This document shows positions 1,046 to 44,205 of a DNA stretch of 64,000 nt, one piece after another. Where the stretch lies: the IMG/VR virus record IMGVR_UViG_3300033489_000009, positions 769-64,768 of that record. One strand, 5' to 3'. Below the pieces are notes generated by a model. That model searched no databases and had not been told where the DNA came from. It saw only the letters and a list, made by a program, of their open reading frames with translations. Source of the stretch: a virus. Position numbers and translations under genes: made by a program. Within the stretch, counting starts at the first letter, position 1. Each line of letters begins with the position of its first letter.

Positions 1046-1344
1046 CGGGATGCCGCCTCGGTGTCCGTGATCCAGGCCGAGTAGCTCAGCCGCACCTCGA
1101 ACATCTCCCCGGCCTGCCGGACCCAGTCACCCTCCGGCGGGGTCGGCGGCACGCCCAGCGTCGGGCGCCCCGCAGGGCCACCGCCGAGACGGACACCCCG
1201 CTCCTTGGCCAACGCGACCGCCTGGGCGTGCAACAGGTCCCTGATGGCCGACCGGCCGCGCTGCTCGGCCGGGACCTCCGCGTAGAAGGTCCACGTACCC
1301 CATCGCCCGCCCACCACAGCCCGCCCCTGCTCCTGCTCGCTCAA
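1042..1344 (-). CDS. Hypothetical protein
   Basis: 100 aa ORF overlapping the TerL stop by 4 nt. Confidence 0.6.
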   Translation of the reverse strand: MSEQEQGRAVVGGRWGTWTFYAEVPAEQRGRSAIRDLLHAQAVALAKERGVRLGGGPAGRPTLGVPPTPPEGDWVRQAGEMFEVRLSYSAWITDTEAASR

Positions 1345-3917
1345 ATGAACCTCACCCGAGGCCTGGCACCGAGATCCCGCTCAGCGCACATGTACCTAGC
1401 GCAGTCACAGTTATGCACGAGGACGCCGGCCGCGAAGTACTCCGGCTGGTCAGCCACCGTCAGGTTGAACACCGGCACAAGCCCGGGCTGAACGCAGACG
1501 CTGAGCACATGTACGTCCGCAGCATTCCTTGCGGCTGTAGCGGTTGGTAGTGAACTCGGTACCGCACTGGGGGCAGGTCCTCTGCTCGTCGTCCACGCCG
1601 CTCGCGTAACGCCATGCCGTCTTGCACCTATTCGAGCAGAACCGCTCACGACCGTGCTGGTTGGTGGTCTCGAAGTCGGCCCCGCACTGCTCGCAGGTGC
1701 TGGTTCGCACGGGTCCATGCCCGAAGCGTTCCACCTCAGCGTGCCAGCGGTGCCAGTCCAGACCCTCAGGCGAGCTGTGCCATGCCGCAGCGAGCGGACG
1801 AATCCGCTCGAGATGCGCGCGAGCCTCGGGACTTTGCGATCGGACCCGCGCCTGTTCCCGGTGAACTTCCTTGTGCTCGGCGATCGTGACGCAGGCCAGG
1901 TTCCCCGGGTCATTGTTGAGGGGGTCGAAGTCGAGGTGATGGACCTCGCAACCCTCGGGTATCGGTCCATGCTTGGCCTTCCATATCTCCTGGTGAAGGT
2001 GCCCGACTCCCCGCTTCCTGTCGGCGATTCCAGGAGTGAAGTAGTTGCGGTTGGCCTGATATGGAGAGTCTGGGTAGCGGCGGAATGTGATTCCGGCGAA
2101 CTTAACTCGCTCGACGTTGGACACCCCATAAGTCTATCCCCATATCCCAATGAATCGAGCCGCGACCAGCCTCTTTCGTTCACCCAGACAGGATGATCCC
2201 CTGTACCGACAAGCACTTCCCCGGTCGACAGCAGGACCTGCACCACTTCCGCAGCGGGCATGGTCATGCCACTCGCAACTACAGGTCGTGGTCCGGCCCT
2301 GGTAAGCACCAGGTGCCATGGCCGGATCTGCTCGATCGGGACGTCTCCGGCAGTGGTGGCGACCAGCGTCCCGGCAATGAGGCACCCATGGTCGTCCACC
2401 TTCAACGGTGTCTCCTTCGTCTCCCTCGGCACCGCCGCCGTCGCCCCGGCCGGATCCCACACGTAGCCGGGCAGCTCCTCCGCGAAGCATGTCGGCTTCT
2501 TCGCCTCCTCCAGCTCCGGGTCCAGTTCCACCAGTGAGTCCCGGAGGATGTACAGGCGGGGCTTCCCGTCACCCGCTGGCCGGAGGCGGGCCTGCATGGC
2601 CTGGATGCCGTCCTTGACCGTCTTGTGCGCCGCGGAGGTGGACATGCCCAGGTGCCGTTCCAGGGTCGCCCTGTCTTCCGCGTCATGGTCGCAGATCACC
2701 GCGGTGGGGCGGGGCTCCAACCAGACGCCGTCGCCGTCGCGCATCTGGGCGAGCATGGTCCGGGCGTGGTCCTCGACGAGCCGTCTCGTGTGGTAGATCT
2801 CCCGGTACATCCATAGCCGGCCGTCGCCGTCCTCGGCGTACCACTGTGCGGTGAAGGGGTTCGTGAAGCCGAAGTCCACCACGATCCACCTGGTCCAGTC
2901 GGCTGGGATTTCGAACCGGTCGACGAGGTGGATCGCAGGGTCGTACCCGTCGTAGATGATCCCCTCGGCGGCGACCCACTTCCCTCCCTCCAGGCGGGCC
3001 TTCCGGACGCCGGTGAGCTTCGCCAACTTCGCCAGGTACGCCGCCCCAGCGAGGGTGGGTTTGCCGGTGGCGGGCGCGATGAGGGTCGGGTTGTCCGAGT
3101 GCCGGCAGTGGAGCATCCGGGTGTCGCCCCGCTGGCAGCGGACGTTCAGCCAGTGGGTGGGCTTGTCCGGGTTGGTGTCGGCGAGGAGCTGCTGGACCGG
3201 GGTACGGGCGTTCCGGAGCCGGGTGGTGAGCGCCTCCCAGTTGTCGGTGGTCAGCTCGATCGCTTCTTGGACGTACACCACGTCGTAATCGGAGGACATC
3301 ACCCTGGTCGATTTGTCCATTCCGCCGAGGTTGATGGCGGACCCGTTGGCGTACCGGTAGGCGGCGGCCTCCTGCTGGGATCCGCCGTAGAAGTGGACCA
3401 GTCCCGCTTCGAGGGCTTCGGGGATGACCTTCTCCCGCCAGGTGACCAGGGCCGTGGAGCCGAGGGAGGTGAGTGTCTTGCGGATGACCAGGCCGCGCAT
3501 CCCGGGCCAGGCGAGGGCGAGGAGGTTCAGCAGCTCGAGGGCCGCCCGGGACTTGCCGGTGCCCGCGGGACCGGACAGGAGGACCTCGTCCTGGGCGGTG
3601 GTGAACACGTCGCGGGCCGCGCCGTGCGGGGCGTACAGGTGGACGCCGGGCACGGTCGGATGCTCGTCGGTGCTGGCCTGGTCGGGGTGGACGGGCAGGT
3701 GCAGGGCGGTCGGCAGGTGCACGCCGGGGATCAGGTAGGTGACGGTGCTCGCGTCGGGCCCGGTCAGGACGAGCCGGTCGCCGGCCGGGACGGTCGCGGT
3801 CCAGCCGGCCTTGCGCCACAGCCGGTGCCCGGAGTGGTCGAGGTCGTCCGCGGCGTTCCTGGCAGCTTGGGCGACCAGCCTGGCCACCCACCCGCCCGGG
3901 GCCGCGGTCGTTGTCAC
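1341..3917 (-). CDS. terL: Terminase large subunit, intein-containing
   Basis: Walker A GPAGTGKS, Walker B YVQEA, coupling motif DTNP, nuclease motifs VDFGFTNP and DDHG/CD..RY; interrupted by an intein. Confidence 0.95.
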   Translation of the reverse strand: MTTTAAPGGWVARLVAQAARNAADDLDHSGHRLWRKAGWTATVPAGDRLVLTGPDASTVTYLIPGVHLPTALHLPVHPDQASTDEHPTVPGVHLYAPHGAARDVFTTAQDEVLLSGPAGTGKSRAALELLNLLALAWPGMRGLVIRKTLTSLGSTALVTWREKVIPEALEAGLVHFYGGSQQEAAAYRYANGSAINLGGMDKSTRVMSSDYDVVYVQEAIELTTDNWEALTTRLRNARTPVQQLLADTNPDKPTHWLNVRCQRGDTRMLHCRHSDNPTLIAPATGKPTLAGAAYLAKLAKLTGVRKARLEGGKWVAAEGIIYDGYDPAIHLVDRFEIPADWTRWIVVDFGFTNPFTAQWYAEDGDGRLWMYREIYHTRRLVEDHARTMLAQMRDGDGVWLEPRPTAVICDHDAEDRATLERHLGMSTSAAHKTVKDGIQAMQARLRPAGDGKPRLYILRDSLVELDPELEEAKKPTCFAEELPGYVWDPAGATAAVPRETKETPLKVDDHGCLIAGTLVATTAGDVPIEQIRPWHLVLTRAGPRPVVASGMTMPAAEVVQVLLSTGEVLVGTGDHPVWVNERGWSRLDSLGYGDRLMGCPTSSELSSPESHSAATQTLHIRPTATTSLLESPTGSGESGTFTRRYGRPSMDRYPRVARSITSTSTPSTMTRGTWPASRSPSTRKFTGNRRGSDRKVPRLARISSGFVRSLRHGTARLRVWTGTAGTLRWNASGMDPCEPAPASSAGPTSRPPTSTVVSGSARIGARRHGVTRAAWTTSRGPAPSAVPSSLPTATAARNAADVHVLSVCVQPGLVPVFNLTVADQPEYFAAGVLVHNCDCARYMCAERDLGARPRVRFI
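1410..2384 (-). mobile_element. Intein (325 aa) in the TerL nuclease domain
   Basis: Begins CLIAGTLVAT (Cys1 codon 2382-2384), has a block B-like TGDHPVW, and ends FNLTVADQPEYFAAGVLVHN followed by Cys+1. The exteins rejoin as KVDDHG-CDCARY. Confidence 0.93.
1450..2124 (-). CDS. HNH endonuclease with C-terminal zinc fingers, nested in an alternative frame inside the intein
   Basis: HLHQEIWKAKHGPIPEGCEVHHLDFDPLNNDPGNLACVTIAEHKEVH (HNH) plus CEQC, FCSNRC, CPQC and CCGRTC motifs; same strand as the intein, different frame. Confidence 0.88.
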   Translation of the reverse strand: MSNVERVKFAGITFRRYPDSPYQANRNYFTPGIADRKRGVGHLHQEIWKAKHGPIPEGCEVHHLDFDPLNNDPGNLACVTIAEHKEVHREQARVRSQSPEARAHLERIRPLAAAWHSSPEGLDWHRWHAEVERFGHGPVRTSTCEQCGADFETTNQHGRERFCSNRCKTAWRYASGVDDEQRTCPQCGTEFTTNRYSRKECCGRTCAQRLRSARACAGVQPDGG

Positions 3918-37399: not shown

Positions 37400-38034
37400 C
37401 GGTGAGGGCCGGGATCGGTGCGGTGGTGGCGGGCTGTGTCCTGCTGGCCGCCTGCGGCAGCGGTAGTACCGAGCACGGTGACAGCTCCGGTCCGACGGTG
37501 CCCGCGACGGGTGCGCTGGCCGGGCTCACGGTCGCTGCCGAAGCGCACGCCGACACCTACCAGCGGGACGCGTTCGGGCAACGGTGGAAGGACGTCGACG
37601 GGAATGGGTGCGGGCAGCGGGACGACGTCCTGACCCGGGACCTGACCGGGATCACCCGCCGGGGCCGGTGCGTCGTGGTCGCAGGCGCACTGGTCGACCC
37701 GTACACCGGCCAGCAGGTGGCGTTCGCCAAGGCCCGCGCGAGTGAGGTGCAGATCGACCACATCGTCGCTCTGGCTGAGGCGTGGCGGTCCGGGGCCTGG
37801 TCCTGGACCCCGGACCGGCGGGAGGCCTACGCCAACGACCTGACCGTCCTGCAGGCCACAGCGGGCCGGGTGAACCAGGTGAAGGGCGATGAGGATGCGG
37901 CGGGCTGGTCACCGGCCGGCGGCGCGCGGCGGTGCCGGTACGCCGGCATGGTTGTGCAGGTCAAGGCCCGTTGGGGCCTGACCGCTGACCCGGCTGAGGT
38001 CGAGGCGCTGGCCGCGATGTTGGGGGACTGCTGA
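37396..38034 (+). CDS. Lipoprotein HNH nuclease (DUF1524 family)
   Basis: Signal peptide with lipobox LLAAC; YQRDAFG..W.D.D.NGC..R..VL.RD, QIDHIVALAEAW.SGA, ND...L.A....N..KGD. Confidence 0.88.
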   Translation: MTVRAGIGAVVAGCVLLAACGSGSTEHGDSSGPTVPATGALAGLTVAAEAHADTYQRDAFGQRWKDVDGNGCGQRDDVLTRDLTGITRRGRCVVVAGALVDPYTGQQVAFAKARASEVQIDHIVALAEAWRSGAWSWTPDRREAYANDLTVLQATAGRVNQVKGDEDAAGWSPAGGARRCRYAGMVVQVKARWGLTADPAEVEALAAMLGDC

Positions 38035-39546
38035 TGGTCGCTCGGCCGCCAGTGATGGAGGACATTCCGTCGCCCGTCCCCAACAGGTGGCGGATCCTCG
38101 CCTACGGCGCTGGCACCGACCCGCCATACACGGTCGCGAACCATGTGGGCGCATCCTCCACGTGGCCAGGAGCCGTCAACCACGTGCTCCCCGCCGAAGC
38201 GTGGCTGGACGAGATCGTCGTGACTGGCCTGCTCCATCTGGAGGACATGGGCGGCCACTGGTACCTCGGTATCGGGGACTGCAAGTTCTCCCTGACCGTA
38301 GACGGCGATCGGGTCCGGGTCCTCCTTTACGAGGGTGAGGTCGAGTCGTGACCGCGAGGCGTCCGTTGCGGCTGGTCGGTCCCGTCGGGCCCGCCCCGCA
38401 GGCAGGGCCTTGGACCCGGCCGGTGACGGTCCAGCTCCAGGCCGGTGCGTGGACGGCGCTCGGGTTCGCCGCGCTGATCGACGGGAAGCGGCCCGGCGAG
38501 TGGCTGTCGGAGCGGGTTGAGCAGCTGCTCGCAGACGCTGTCACCGCGGATCCCGAGCTGGCGGGGATGGTCGCCAGCGCACTGACCTACCAGCAGGGGA
38601 GGACGGTCGGGGATGAGAAGCCTGATCAGGTTCATGCTTCGGCGGGCACGGCGGAGGGGTGATCCGATTCCGGCGGGGACCGTCTGCGATCTCGGCCCGT
38701 TCGAGCCGGTCGCTGACCCGAATGTCGTGCTCTTCGACCACCTGTGCGAGGTGCTGGATCCGGCCCGGCGTGAGGCGTTCCTCGCGCTCCGTCCAGTGCC
38801 CGTGGATCCGCCCATCACGGTCGCGGCGGGTCGGCTCCGGTCGGGAGTGCGAGATCCTCAGGTCACCTGCATGATCCGCTTCGGTCGGGGCGTGACGCTG
38901 GTCGCGCTGAGCACCGGGGACGTCCATCTCGTCAATGACCGGGTATCCGGTGCGCTGGCCAGCCAGCAGGGGAGGACCACTGACCATGGCTGATGAGCAG
39001 GGTGGTGTCTGGATCCGGACGGTACCCGACATGGAAGGCATCTACCGTCCGGTCGTCGAGCTCGACGACGACACTTCACACCCGATCGACGACGTTACTG
39101 CGGTCGCCTACGCCCGGGCGATCCTCGTAGCGGTCGCCTACGCCGAGTACGACGCTGCGGTGATCCGGCAGATGACGACGGTCTGCAACCAGGAGGCGGC
39201 GGTTGATCTGGTCCGTCGGATGCGCGGCGACCGGCCGCTACTGGTCTGGCCGGCCCCGCTGGAGCTCGAGCCGGGCGTCTCCGCCCGGACGGGGGAGGCG
39301 TTCCTGGCTGTGAGCCTGCACGGCCTGCGCGTCGGCCAATGGGACATGGCGCAGGCCCGCGAGCACGCCTTGGGTGTCCTGGAGGCCGTCGAGGTTGCGC
39401 CGTTGGATTCGGCGTACCTGCGGGCACTGCGGGCAATCGATGTCGAGGAGGGGCGGGCCAGGGTGGTTGTGGACGATCTGGCCCGGTACCGGATGCTGGA
39501 GCAGGAGGGGGGAGTCGAATCGTGGCTGACCTGGTCGAGTTCCTGA
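38034..39546 (+). CDS. Four hypothetical ORFs (38034-38351, 38348-38662, ~38613-38993, 38986-39546)
   Basis: Consecutive overlapping plus-strand ORFs with globular composition. Confidence 0.55.
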
Positions 39547-39947
39547 CCGCCCGCCTCGACGAGGACGAAGCGGTTGCGCGGGTGGCTTCACGGACGGTGT
39601 CCGGCTCCTGGCACCTTGAGCGGAGCTCCGTGCTGTGGTGGCCGACGACAGACGACGACTTGGACGAGGACGATGGTGCTGGTGGAGCCTGGCCGATCGA
39701 TCCGGGGACTGCGATCGCTCCGCACATTGCCCGCTGGGATCCGGCTCGGGTCCTCGCCGAGGTGGCAGTCAAGCGGCAGTTTGTCCGCCTGTTCTCAGAT
39801 CGGCCGACCGCGCCCCCGGCCGGTGATGTCTTCCAGTCGGCGATCGCCAGCATCGTGACCAGTACGAATGACTGGGTGCTGCGGCAGTTGGTCCAGCCGT
39901 ATGCGGATCATCCGGACTTCGACCCGACCTGGAGGGACGCGACGTGA
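39522..39947 (+). CDS. DUF6221 family protein
   Basis: DLVEFLTARLDEDE...HIARWDPARVLAEV..KR...LRQLVQPYADHPDFDPTW. Confidence 0.85.
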   Translation: MADLVEFLTARLDEDEAVARVASRTVSGSWHLERSSVLWWPTTDDDLDEDDGAGGAWPIDPGTAIAPHIARWDPARVLAEVAVKRQFVRLFSDRPTAPPAGDVFQSAIASIVTSTNDWVLRQLVQPYADHPDFDPTWRDAT

Positions 39948-40680
39948 GCCGGCGGCGTCGCCCGGGTGGCCGTGACCCCAGGCTGGCCGGGGTCGACCCG
40001 GAGACGGCGGCAGTCCGGCGCTGGCTCACCGACTGCCTCCGCGCTGTGGCCAGCCGCCGGGTGACCCCGCCCGGGCACGCCTACGGGTCGCCGCAGGAGT
40101 TCGTGCTCAAGCACGGCACCTGGCACATCTCTAGCCGGGTCGCAGTGATGGTCGAGTCGCATTGCTTCGCGAACGCCCTGAACTGCGCGCTGGTGTACCC
40201 GGGCTGGTCGTACGTGGAGGGGTACGCCATGGGGCCGCTCACTCAGGTGCCGATCCACCACGGGTGGGGGCCCTGGACGAGCAGGGGCGGGCGATCGAGT
40301 TGACGTGGCGGGCACCGGGCCTGGCGTACCTGGGTGTGCCGTTCGCGGTGGAGCGGGCGGACGACTGCTCGTGGGTGGGTGACGCGACGGTGCTGGACGA
40401 CTGGCGGCGCGGTTGGCCGCTGCTGCGCGACCGGTGGCGGGGTGAGCCGGGGGATGTGCCCCGCTCGGACCGGCTGCGGGCGCTGGCTGTCACGTTGCCG
40501 TTCTCCGACTTGTTCGTGGCGGCTGGGTTGCCGGCGCCGCCGCGGCCGACGCTGGCTGGGAGCGCTCTGGGGGCGTTCCGGGCGGCTCAGGCCCGGTTCG
40601 AGACGGAGCCCGGGCTGGGCCCGGATGAGGCGATGGCCCTGCTCGTGGAGGCGGTGGAGGGCGCGCTGCAACGCCCCTGA
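39944..40680 (+). pseudogene. Gene split by a frameshift at a G5 run (CFANA...YVEGYA...HHGW / LDEQG..IE.TW...AYLGVPF family)
   Basis: ORF 39944-40303 and the frame of ORF 40162-40680 join into one continuous motif series if the G run at 40266-70 gains one G or loses two. Confidence 0.65.
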
Positions 40681-40762
40681 CCTGCATGTCCGCCACTTCG
40701 GAGCCCGATCCAACCCGGAGGCCATCACAATCGCACTGACAACCGAGAGGGAGGCCCGCAAG

Positions 40763-41086
40763 ATGATCCACGAGATCCACAACACCGACGAGAACGGCAA
40801 CCCGGCTGGCGGGAAGACCGTGTCAACCGGGCCGAGTACCGGGCTGAGCATCGAATGGCAGAACGGGCCACTCGCTGTGGACGGGGTGCGCAAGGACCCG
40901 AACGGCGCATTCGTAGAAGACGTGATCGCCGCCGCCATCGGGCGGATCGGGTTCTACCAGGCCGGCAAATTCCATTGCCTTGAGAACGCAGCCGCTCTGG
41001 GACACCTGCTGGCCGCTGCGGAGATCCTGGCCGAGCGGACCCGAGACCGGGATCGGCGCCAGGTCGAGGGAACTCATCAGAGGTGA
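40763..41086 (+). CDS. tad1: Tad1-like anti-defence nucleotide sponge (107 aa)
   Basis: WQNGP...NGAFVEDVI...RIGFYQ..KFHCLENAAAL..L..A...L.ERT.DR.RR.VEGTH parallels the Tad1 pattern FQ.GP...NG...EDL...RL..FQ...F.C.EN..A...L..A..WL..RT..R..R.VEGT; strong GAGAGGGAGG RBS. Confidence 0.8.
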   Translation: MIHEIHNTDENGNPAGGKTVSTGPSTGLSIEWQNGPLAVDGVRKDPNGAFVEDVIAAAIGRIGFYQAGKFHCLENAAALGHLLAAAEILAERTRDRDRRQVEGTHQR

Positions 41087-41640
41087 TCGGTGCGGTCCTA
41101 CTGCGGCCACTCCCCCCCGGCCGCGGAACCCGGCATTCCAGCTACGGGACGGTACGGGTCCTGGCCGTGCTCGGCCGGCAGCCCGGCTGGGTGCACGTCA
41201 CGCTGCCGACCCGCCCCAACGGCAGCAGCGGCTGGGTCAAGGCAGGTGACGTGAAGGTCGAGCAGGTCACCACGTCGATCGCCGTGGACCTATCGGCCCG
41301 GACCATCACCGTCCGGGTCGGCGGCGGGAAGGCCACCACCGGCAAGGCCGCGGTCGGCTCCACCCGGAACCCGACCCCGACCGGAAGTTTCTTCGTCACC
41401 GACCGGGTACGTCCCGCCGACCCGGGCGGCGCCTACGGCTCGTTCGCGCTCGGGTTGTCCGCCCACTCCGACACCCTGTCCGAGTTCGGTGGCAGCGACG
41501 GGCAGGTCGGGATCCACGGCACGAACGATCCGGCCAGCCTGGGCAGGGCCGTCTCCCATGGGTGTGTCCGCGTCCCGGATGGTGTTGTCGCCCTGCTGCG
41601 GCAGGTGCCTCTGGGGACCCCGGTCGTCGTCACCGCCTGA
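41083..41640 (+). CDS. L,D-transpeptidase (YkuD family), no signal peptide evident
   Basis: LPTRPNGSSGWV, AVG...PTPTGSFFV, GIHGT...GRAVSHGCVRV catalytic His/Cys motif. Confidence 0.92.
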   Translation: MIGAVLLRPLPPGRGTRHSSYGTVRVLAVLGRQPGWVHVTLPTRPNGSSGWVKAGDVKVEQVTTSIAVDLSARTITVRVGGGKATTGKAAVGSTRNPTPTGSFFVTDRVRPADPGGAYGSFALGLSAHSDTLSEFGGSDGQVGIHGTNDPASLGRAVSHGCVRVPDGVVALLRQVPLGTPVVVTA

Positions 41641-42120: not shown

Positions 42121-43734
42121 TCAGCGGATTCCGAGTTGCGCCAGTAGGAGACGTCCCGCTGCGGTCCCGATCGCGTTGTGTCCTGCCTGCGATGGGTGGA
42201 CCCCATCAGTGGAAACGTAGAGGTCAGAGTTGCCCGCGCCCGTCGTGGCACCAACGCGGCCGGTTCCGGACCAGAGCGCGGGCCCGACCGTCGCGATGGT
42301 CACGGGGGTAGCGGGGACTGCGGTTGTCAGGGCCGGGACGGTGATTGTGTAGGGGCCGGTCCCGGACCGGCTCGTGATGACCCGGCGGTCGATGTTGTTG
42401 ATCGACACCGTGGATCCGGCGGGGATTGGGGCCGCCAATCCCGCGATGGTCGTTGCCCCGGCCGATGCCCCGGAGGAGGTTGTGGTCGAGACGGCGGCGT
42501 GCCCGAGCGGCATCTCCAGCAGGTCGACGAACAGGCATCCAGCGGCCAGCGCCGCGGCCCTGACGGCATCCCGGAGGGGGATAATCCAGACGGGCCAGGA
42601 CTCGGGCCCGTTGTGGTACCAGGTCCCGTTGACGATTTGCAGCGCGTTGGGGAGTGCCGCGGTGACGGCCGCGAAGCACGCGGAAGCTTCGGCGCCGACA
42701 GCGGCCGCGGTCCACGCGGGGTTGGTGACCGGGCTGTCGTTGATCCCGCCGGACCAGACCACAACCTCCGGCGCGTAGGCGATGACGTCGGCGGCCAGCC
42801 GATCCCGGTATTTCACGTATGACCCGGGGTTCAGGTATCCGGTCCCGCCGATCGGGGAGGCAACGACCTCATCCCAGCCGAGGGCATGACCGAATGCCCG
42901 CACCAGGCAGTCGGCGCCCGTGTTCGGGCTACCGGTCCCCTCGGCGAAGGAGTCACCGACGAAGATCGTCCTCGGCCCGCGTAGCGGCGCCGACCAGACG
43001 GAGTCCGTGGCTGCGGTGACGATGCCGCCGAACGGGACGTTGTACAGCTCTAGGTCGATCCGCCGGGGGCGCTTATCGGCCAGCGTGACCAGCGTGTATC
43101 CGTCAGTCCCGTCGTTGACCAGAGAAACAGCCGTCTCCGACACGAGCTGGTCATCGACCCAGACCCGGTACTTGCCGTTGGCATTCCGTGCGCGGACCTC
43201 GAAGGCGATCCCGTCGAGCATGAAGGAGACCTTGAGCGGCGACACGAGAGCCGCAGACGGGCTCAGCGCGTTCGCCGAGACCATTGTCGGTCGAGTGCCC
43301 GTGGTGCCGAACTGGGCGACGCCGTACCCGCTGTAGGCGTATGTCCCGTCGACAGTCCCAGCACCGGCTGTGGCGTCTGCGGACGGCCACAGCTTGGCCA
43401 GCGTCTGCGTGCTCGTGGCGGAGATCGTCGCTGCGGCGGCGACCGGCACCAATGAGTGCTGGCTCAGCGCCCGGAACTTCGACGCCTTCCGCACATACGT
43501 GCCCGAGTCGGTTGCCGCCTGGACGGCGATCGCGGCGTCTCTAGCTACCGCCTCCGCAGCGACAGACGATGCGACCGCCGTGGCAGTCCCGACCTCCAGT
43601 GCGGCCACGGCGGTGCTGGCAGCGATCACCGCTGGCCGGGACGCCTCAGGGATGTCCGCCAGCTCGAAGAGGTGACCCTCCCCGTAGGAGATGGTCCCGG
43701 TCCGGACCGGGTGGATCGTGATCCGCTGTCCCAT
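42121..43734 (-). CDS. SGNH/GDSL hydrolase with N-terminal beta domain (possible virion-associated esterase)
   Basis: Blocks I (GDSFAEG), II (GGTGY), III (GGIND) and V (DGVHPS). Confidence 0.88.
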   Translation of the reverse strand: MGQRITIHPVRTGTISYGEGHLFELADIPEASRPAVIAASTAVAALEVGTATAVASSVAAEAVARDAAIAVQAATDSGTYVRKASKFRALSQHSLVPVAAAATISATSTQTLAKLWPSADATAGAGTVDGTYAYSGYGVAQFGTTGTRPTMVSANALSPSAALVSPLKVSFMLDGIAFEVRARNANGKYRVWVDDQLVSETAVSLVNDGTDGYTLVTLADKRPRRIDLELYNVPFGGIVTAATDSVWSAPLRGPRTIFVGDSFAEGTGSPNTGADCLVRAFGHALGWDEVVASPIGGTGYLNPGSYVKYRDRLAADVIAYAPEVVVWSGGINDSPVTNPAWTAAAVGAEASACFAAVTAALPNALQIVNGTWYHNGPESWPVWIIPLRDAVRAAALAAGCLFVDLLEMPLGHAAVSTTTSSGASAGATTIAGLAAPIPAGSTVSINNIDRRVITSRSGTGPYTITVPALTTAVPATPVTIATVGPALWSGTGRVGATTGAGNSDLYVSTDGVHPSQAGHNAIGTAAGRLLLAQLGIR

Positions 43735-43752: not shown

Positions 43753-44205
43753 TCAGGTGGCGAGGGTGACACCGGCGCGACCCGCCAGGGCCGGGACGGT
43801 CGGCGACAGGTATGAGGTGACCACCGCAGTACCAGCGGCGGCGGTAGCAGCGACCAGGACGGCCAGCCAGTCCACGGCGAGCATCCCCGCGAACTCGGTC
43901 GGCAGGAACCCCAGCACGACCCCAGCGAACGCCGGCAACGCTCTCGACCATAGGACGGGTGCCACTCCCCCGCCGGTAACGGGCGGCACATCCCGCAGAG
44001 CGTTGAGCAGGCCCTTGATGGTGGTGAACGTCAGGACACCGCCCATCGTGACCGCTGTGGCGCGGAGGTCGACGTGCCCGGCCGCGAGCGTGACCGCGGC
44101 CAGGACCGGTGCGCCAGCTTGCAGGCCCTGGCGGATTAGCCGGTCGGCGAGGTCACGCCACCACGGCCACGACACGACCGGACGGCTGGTGCTGGGCTGG
44201 GACAT
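43753..44205 (-). CDS. Holin (putative, four TM)
   Basis: WWRDLADRLIR...; multiple hydrophobic helices; in the lysis cassette. Confidence 0.7.
   Translation of the reverse strand: MSQPSTSRPVVSWPWWRDLADRLIRQGLQAGAPVLAAVTLAAGHVDLRATAVTMGGVLTFTTIKGLLNALRDVPPVTGGGVAPVLWSRALPAFAGVVLGFLPTEFAGMLAVDWLAVLVAATAAAGTAVVTSYLSPTVPALAGRAGVTLAT

Follow-up and report, generated by a model that had tools for sequence, protein, structure and literature searches.

The 107-aa protein encoded at 40763-41086 is a member of the Tad1 sponge family, as established by sequence, profile, fold and predicted dimer. Its gcADPR pocket is kept, whereas the cyclic-trinucleotide site and the segment contacting 2',3'-cGAMP are lost, and this combination makes a Thoeris-directed cyclic-ADPR sponge the most likely function. 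We propose, with a probability of about 0.6, that its pockets would trap 3'cADPR or 2'cADPR, probably binding Thoeris-type signals only.

The window, namely the whole stretch of 64,000 nucleotides that was analysed, is nearly the whole of the IMG/VR viral contig IMGVR_UViG_3300033489_000009. The contig, 64,944 bp long and of 70.7% GC, carries direct terminal repeats and its completeness is rated 100%. PHROG matches in the genome comprise a portal protein, a head protease, a major head protein, a tape-measure protein and a large terminase. Among cultured phages, Streptomyces phage Dagobah has the nearest portal protein, with 51% identity over the N-terminal half only, and megablast of the 22 kb around the tad1-like gene against 50,697 phage records gave no match. 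Therefore, the source virus is a tailed actinophage that has no close relative in culture. The PHROG matches of the large terminase ORF (1341-3917, minus strand, 857 aa) cover its N- and C-terminal parts separately. A search for tRNA genes in the window gave none, and no Tad2 (PF11195) was detected in the genome.

The gene lies among the following elements:

40763..41086, plus strand: tad1-like gene, 107 codons plus TGA (ATG at 40763, TGA at 41084-41086), supported by PDB Tad1 matches, hhalign and the model.
40745..40754, plus strand: GAGAGGGAGG, the ribosome-binding site, 8 nt upstream of the ATG and evident from the sequence itself.
41083..41086, plus strand: GTGA overlap of the tad1-like stop with the GTG start of the YkuD gene.
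38034-38351, 38348-38662, 38935-39546, 39944-40303 and 40162-40680, plus strand: examples of upstream small ORFs, without family match.

The 107-aa ORF is real, and GAGAGGGAGG is a strong ribosome-binding site. The preceding gene, in a different frame, stops at 40680. The start site is fixed by about 2000 homologues of similar length (roughly 106 aa), which share it. The gene has a GC3 of 0.80 and a GC content of 65%, compared with 70.7% for the genome. It is the last of a rightward block of five or six small plus-strand ORFs (38034-40680) for which no family was found in Pfam, PHROGs or NCBIfam; as they adjoin the sponge gene, they are candidates for additional counter-defence genes. On the other side, the overlapping stop and start codons suggest translational coupling with the downstream gene (41083-41640, plus strand, 185 aa), which encodes a YkuD L,D-transpeptidase catalytic domain (E 3.5e-19) and has a weak SH3 match. 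An L,D-transpeptidase is an unusual cargo for a phage, and this neighbour is not conserved among 11 related loci. Facing the tad1 block, a leftward convergent block opens with a 537-aa gene (42121-43734, minus strand) with a central GDSL/SGNH hydrolase domain, also matched by a PHROG labelled head decoration, and an adjoining 150-aa gene (43753-44205, minus strand) with weak holin matches; the two may form a module for lysis or for the cell envelope. A scan for promoters and terminators around the tad1-like gene gave nothing exceeding the shuffled expectation.

Family membership is first of all a matter of sequence. The single protein, compared by phmmer with all PDB sequences, matched Tad1 chains only (CmTad1 at 1.3e-5, CbTad1 at 9e-5). 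A profile of 86 sequences lowered these values to 5.2e-17 and 1.9e-14, respectively, with Tad1 chains ranging from 5.2e-17 to 2.4e-14, and also matched at 2.9e-9 PhiKZ gp184, a known Tad1 that is packaged in the virion. [quoted passage not shown] BLASTP gave 39% identity with it over the C-terminal 79 residues, with VEGTH identical, and no large gap interrupts the alignment of residues 28/29-106/107 with SBSphiJ7 Tad1 or with CbTad1 and CmTad1. The shared motifs are FQxGP, NG..ED.I, R..(F/Y)Q, F.C.EN, RT..R and the terminal VEGTH. Hence, the observation of the first-pass annotation that the C-terminal 80 or so residues of the ORF follow the Tad1 motif series through to VEGTH is borne out. It had also read the N-terminus as different, which is correct: the protein is 35 residues shorter N-terminally than SBSphiJ7 Tad1, with 27 rather than 66 residues before the aligned core.

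General-purpose family models do not convey this relationship. Pfam-A and NCBIfam contain no family for the 107-aa protein, and PHROGs returned two families of unknown function only, among them phrog_2428 at 2e-17. The model PF24729, Acb2_Tad1_hairpin, whose curated cut-off is 27 bits, gave no match at E <= 1 with either the protein or the whole genome, and precomputed PF24729 matches are present on some close homologues; the model is too narrow for the clade of the 107-aa protein. That clade, recognized by GNPAGG and NGAFVED, belongs for the most part to phages whose hosts are high-GC and freshwater actinobacteria. Among cultured actinophage records tblastn found no homologue, the only phages matched being those of Vibrio and Bacillus, and the species-representative genomes contained just two relatives, both in actinobacterial MAGs. 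The contigs of the relatives have 50-67% GC, and on a related 75-kb contig the homologue lies amid replication and nucleotide-metabolism genes.

The fold agrees with the sequence. The AlphaFold2 model, built from an 86-row alignment, has a pLDDT of 95.3 and a pTM of 0.83, and its strands (2-8, 14-21 and 29-32) and helices (51-66 and 73-98) reproduce the Tad1 architecture as described. The protein is divided as follows:

40763..40891, plus strand: residues 1-43, N-terminal antiparallel beta-sheet with strands 2-8, 14-21 and 29-32 (from the model), including the clade motifs GNPAGG (12-17) and WQNGPL (32-37).
40892..41056, plus strand: residues 44-98, loop and two-helix hairpin (helices 51-66 and 73-98) with pocket residues R61, Y65, F70, N75, R92 and R96.
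41057..41083, plus strand: residues 99-107, C-terminal tail RRQVEGTHQR, the equivalent of the ligand-closing lid of CbTad1, with G103 and H105.

All 20 Foldseek matches with E <= 0.001 were Tad1 chains (E from 3.9e-6, TM 0.65-0.75), the next match having an E of 0.4. VIA, a search independent of Foldseek, superimposed 102 of the 107 residues on CbTad1 with a Z of 10.2 and an rmsd of 2.6 Å, and gave a Z of 9.1 with CmTad1; in all other rows only the helical hairpin was matched, with Z <= 7.4. A structural comparison, which might have exposed a mismatch with the Tad1 fold, thus placed the protein clearly among Tad1 structures; like the sequence and profile matches, this similarity greatly exceeds what chance would give.

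Tad1 proteins are dimers joined by a beta4-beta4 seam and a four-helix bundle that enclose two pockets (Leavitt et al., bioRxiv 10.1101/2022.05.03.490397). Two copies of the 107-aa protein are predicted to associate in the same manner. The best control scored 0.01 and the two-copy model 0.80. Of 30 proteins solved as homo-pairs, 20 attained the latter mark, compared with one of 23 solved as single chains; contacts agreed by 100% between runs, with a partner pLDDT of at least 83. Residues 29, 54 and 81/82/85 are each predicted to touch their counterpart in the other copy, which reproduces the beta4-beta4 seam and the four-helix bundle of cbTad1, with strand 29-32 pairing with its own copy across the dimer, and Y65, N75 and R92 sit at the predicted interface. 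Because Tad1 dimers are already solved, this result may reflect the memory that the model has of them; it shows likeness rather than binding.

Eleven residues of cbTad1 touch 1''-2' gcADPR, namely F82, N92, R109, R113, F87, R78, G55, G120, N122, H29 and R57 (10.1101/2022.05.03.490397). When these positions were mapped through HMMER alignments, with the H29 loop aligned by eye, eight of the 11 contacts proved identical or conservative in the 107-aa protein: F82 corresponds to Y65, a conservative change, and N75, R92, R96, F70, R61, G35 and G103 keep N92, R109, R113, F87, R78, G55 and G120, respectively. The remaining three differ. N122 is replaced by H105, a histidine also being present in SBSphiJ7 Tad1, and R57 by L37, at a position that is variable among validated Tad1 proteins (I in CmTad1, V in SBSphiJ7). 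The third, H29, which reads the ribose-ribose linkage, probably corresponds to T19, this mapping being tentative; the protein is devoid of the APHH-type His loop of SBSphiJ7 Tad1. A MAFFT alignment of 270 relatives shows no variation at the eight kept positions among the 120 close homologues and 87-99% conservation among the 150 distant representatives, which indicates strong purifying selection on the pocket. In comparison with CbTad1 (Clostridium botulinum prophage; PDB 7UAV/7UAW/8SMD/8KBE-8KBH) the fold and these eight adenine, ribose and diphosphate contacts are retained.

The situation is different for the other ligands of the family. In Tad1 hexamers the residues that bind cyclic trinucleotides, R90/T97 in CbTad1 or R88/T95 in CmTad1, also hold the hexamer together, and the CmTad1 hexamer interface further uses K96, Q98, E99, M102, W103 and K106; 2',3'-cGAMP is bound in the pocket for gcADPR, where Q8, L13 and L119 make additional contacts (Li et al., bioRxiv 10.1101/2023.11.15.567273). 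In the 107-aa protein the positions of R90/T97 are occupied by L73/G80, so that the CRENAMAIT stretch of SBSphiJ7 reads CLENAAALG, without the R and T for cyclic trinucleotides. Only 15 of the 270 relatives have the R/T pair, this site being a property of some Tad1 members and not a family-defining one. The N-terminal segment that contacts cGAMP is absent as well: the alignment of the model starts at chain residue 15, and Q8 and L13 have no counterpart because about 14 N-terminal residues are missing, while L119 is replaced by E102. CmTad1 (Clostridioides mangenotii; PDB 8KBB-8KBD), although the best sequence match among solved structures, has R88, T95, K96, Q98, E99, M102, W103 and K106 where the 107-aa protein has L73, G80, H81, L83, A84, E87, I88 and E91. 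Since the interface residues are replaced throughout, a hexamer of the CmTad1 kind is not assured, and to judge from these replacements the assembly beyond the dimer is uncertain. The close clade of 120 sequences conserves H71, (L/I/V)73, G80, H81, A84, E87 and E91 along helix 2 (residues 71-91, 40973-41035 of the window), a surface that occupies the canonical hexamer and cyclic-trinucleotide positions of Tad1. The first-pass annotation had taken the protein for a Tad1-like sponge that counters nucleotide-signalling defences, by implication both Thoeris and CBASS. The family assignment stands, whereas the evidence speaks against this breadth, given the replacement of R90/T97 by L73/G80 and the missing cGAMP N-terminus.

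Taking these features together, we propose the following mode of action. The protein would fold into a small beta-sheet and a two-helix hairpin, and a strand-strand seam together with a four-helix bundle would hold two copies in an interlocked dimer, with two enclosed arginine-lined pockets at the dimer interface. During infection of an actinobacterium, the ligand captured in them would most likely be a cyclic ADP-ribose isomer that a TIR enzyme produces, namely one of the Thoeris signals 3'cADPR and 2'cADPR. With the signal trapped, the Thoeris effector would never be activated and the phage could replicate. Unlike CbTad1 and CmTad1, the protein has lost the arginine/threonine pair that serves CBASS cyclic trinucleotides at the three-fold hexamer interface.

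The published record supports the identification and provides a base rate for the function. A survey from the Sorek laboratory (bioRxiv 10.1101/2025.08.24.671296) collected by HHpred 1,587 non-redundant Tad1 homologues from IMG/VR v3. Its Table S1 (homologs_Tad1) lists the identical 107-residue sequence as IMGVR_UViG_3300033489_000009|Ga0299912_10000188, along with dozens of proteins of its clade that bear the motifs NPAGG, WQNGPL and NGAFVE (10.1101/2025.08.24.671296). The identification as Tad1 is thus already known, correct but ordinary, and adds nothing new to that list. None of the three clade motifs occurs in Table S2, so that the 20 Tad1 proteins tested exclude this clade (10.1101/2025.08.24.671296). 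Among the transformable homologues 8 of 14 inhibited type I Thoeris, including Tad1_50 and Tad1_65, which are devoid of the R/T pair; Tad1_56, short (107 aa) and with a canonical intact hairpin, gave no inhibition of type I Thoeris (10.1101/2025.08.24.671296). Thoeris types VI and VII, which use 2'cADPR and cADPR, respectively, are found in Actinomycetota. Acb5 is enriched in phages of Streptomyces and Mycobacterium, and counter-defence of actinophages against nucleotide signalling has therefore already been reported. In weighing a Thoeris sponge, we counted in its favour the base rate of 8/14 and the presence of 2'cADPR-using Thoeris types in Actinomycetota, and against it the three differing pocket contacts, the inactivity of Tad1_56 and the replaced hexamer-interface residues.

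A sponge with the Tad1 fold could instead have been re-tuned to canonical cADPR (Thoeris VII/VIII), His-ADPR, N7-cADPR or a cyclic dinucleotide, the replacement of the linkage-reading His by Thr, the shorter N-terminus and the conserved (L/I/V)73-G80-H81 surface then denoting a different ligand or a second site; we consider this a tenable second possibility, but not a probable one. It would accommodate the finding that none of the 270 family sequences has His at position 19, where T, S, V or A is found instead, and also the conservation of G80, H81, A84, E87 and E91 by the close clade at hexamer and trinucleotide positions, which implies selection on that surface for something. Type VII Thoeris, signalling through cADPR, is present in Actinomycetota and is not blocked by SBSphiJ7 Tad1, and shifts of specificity are frequent within sponge families (10.1101/2025.08.24.671296). 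However, the residues stacking on the adenine, reading its Hoogsteen edge and binding the diphosphate are all kept, as befits an ADPR-type ligand bound as in cbTad1, and the correspondence of H29 with T19 comes from a loop aligned by eye. The first-pass annotation had suggested that differences in the pocket might confer a new specificity; three contacts do differ, but a narrower specificity of the Thoeris type is better supported than a broad or new one. A more particular proposal, which we regard as rather unlikely, is that the GNPAGG/NGAFVED clade constitutes a distinct Tad1 subtype, dimer-only or differently assembled, without trinucleotide binding and re-tuned through Thr/Ser to a TIR signal of Actinomycetota such as the cADPR of type VII.

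Assignment to Acb2 (anti-CBASS 2) instead of Tad1 is highly improbable. Both families share the two-helix hairpin of PF24729 and the sponge principle of pockets formed between protomers; the nearest Atlas clusters carry the shared Acb2/Tad1 hairpin name, and the precomputed PF24729 matches on some close homologues would fit an Acb2-type anti-CBASS sponge. Acb2, though, is all-helical and is not known to have a beta-sheet domain, whereas the N-terminal beta-sheet of the 107-aa protein is confidently modelled and can be aligned with the Tad1 sheet, 102 of the 107 residues being aligned to CbTad1. The profile search of all PDB sequences retrieved no Acb2 chain at E <= 1, as against 5e-17 for Tad1, and none appears in the fold lists, an absence that does not by itself exclude Acb2. 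The trinucleotide-binding residues, a mode of binding shared with Acb2, are absent as well. We also find it unlikely that the gene is a decayed or non-functional relic of Tad1, or that its function does not concern immune signalling at all. Of the sponge homologues that have been assayed, about one in four was inactive against all seven systems (10.1101/2025.08.24.671296), and the GC content of the gene is somewhat below that of the genome; yet the frame is intact, the ribosome-binding site is strong, about 2000 homologues exist and the pocket residues are near-invariant, which indicates purifying selection and argues against a relic. The preferred reading, accordingly weighed against these others, continues to be a Thoeris-directed sponge for cyclic ADP-ribose.

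The wider meaning concerns both the phage and the family. This temperate soil actinophage would carry a counter-defence gene directed against nucleotide-signalling immunity. The clade to which the protein belongs is large, with about 2000 proteins, and has been overlooked by the Pfam model PF24729; as a consequence, standard annotation leaves these proteins as hypothetical.
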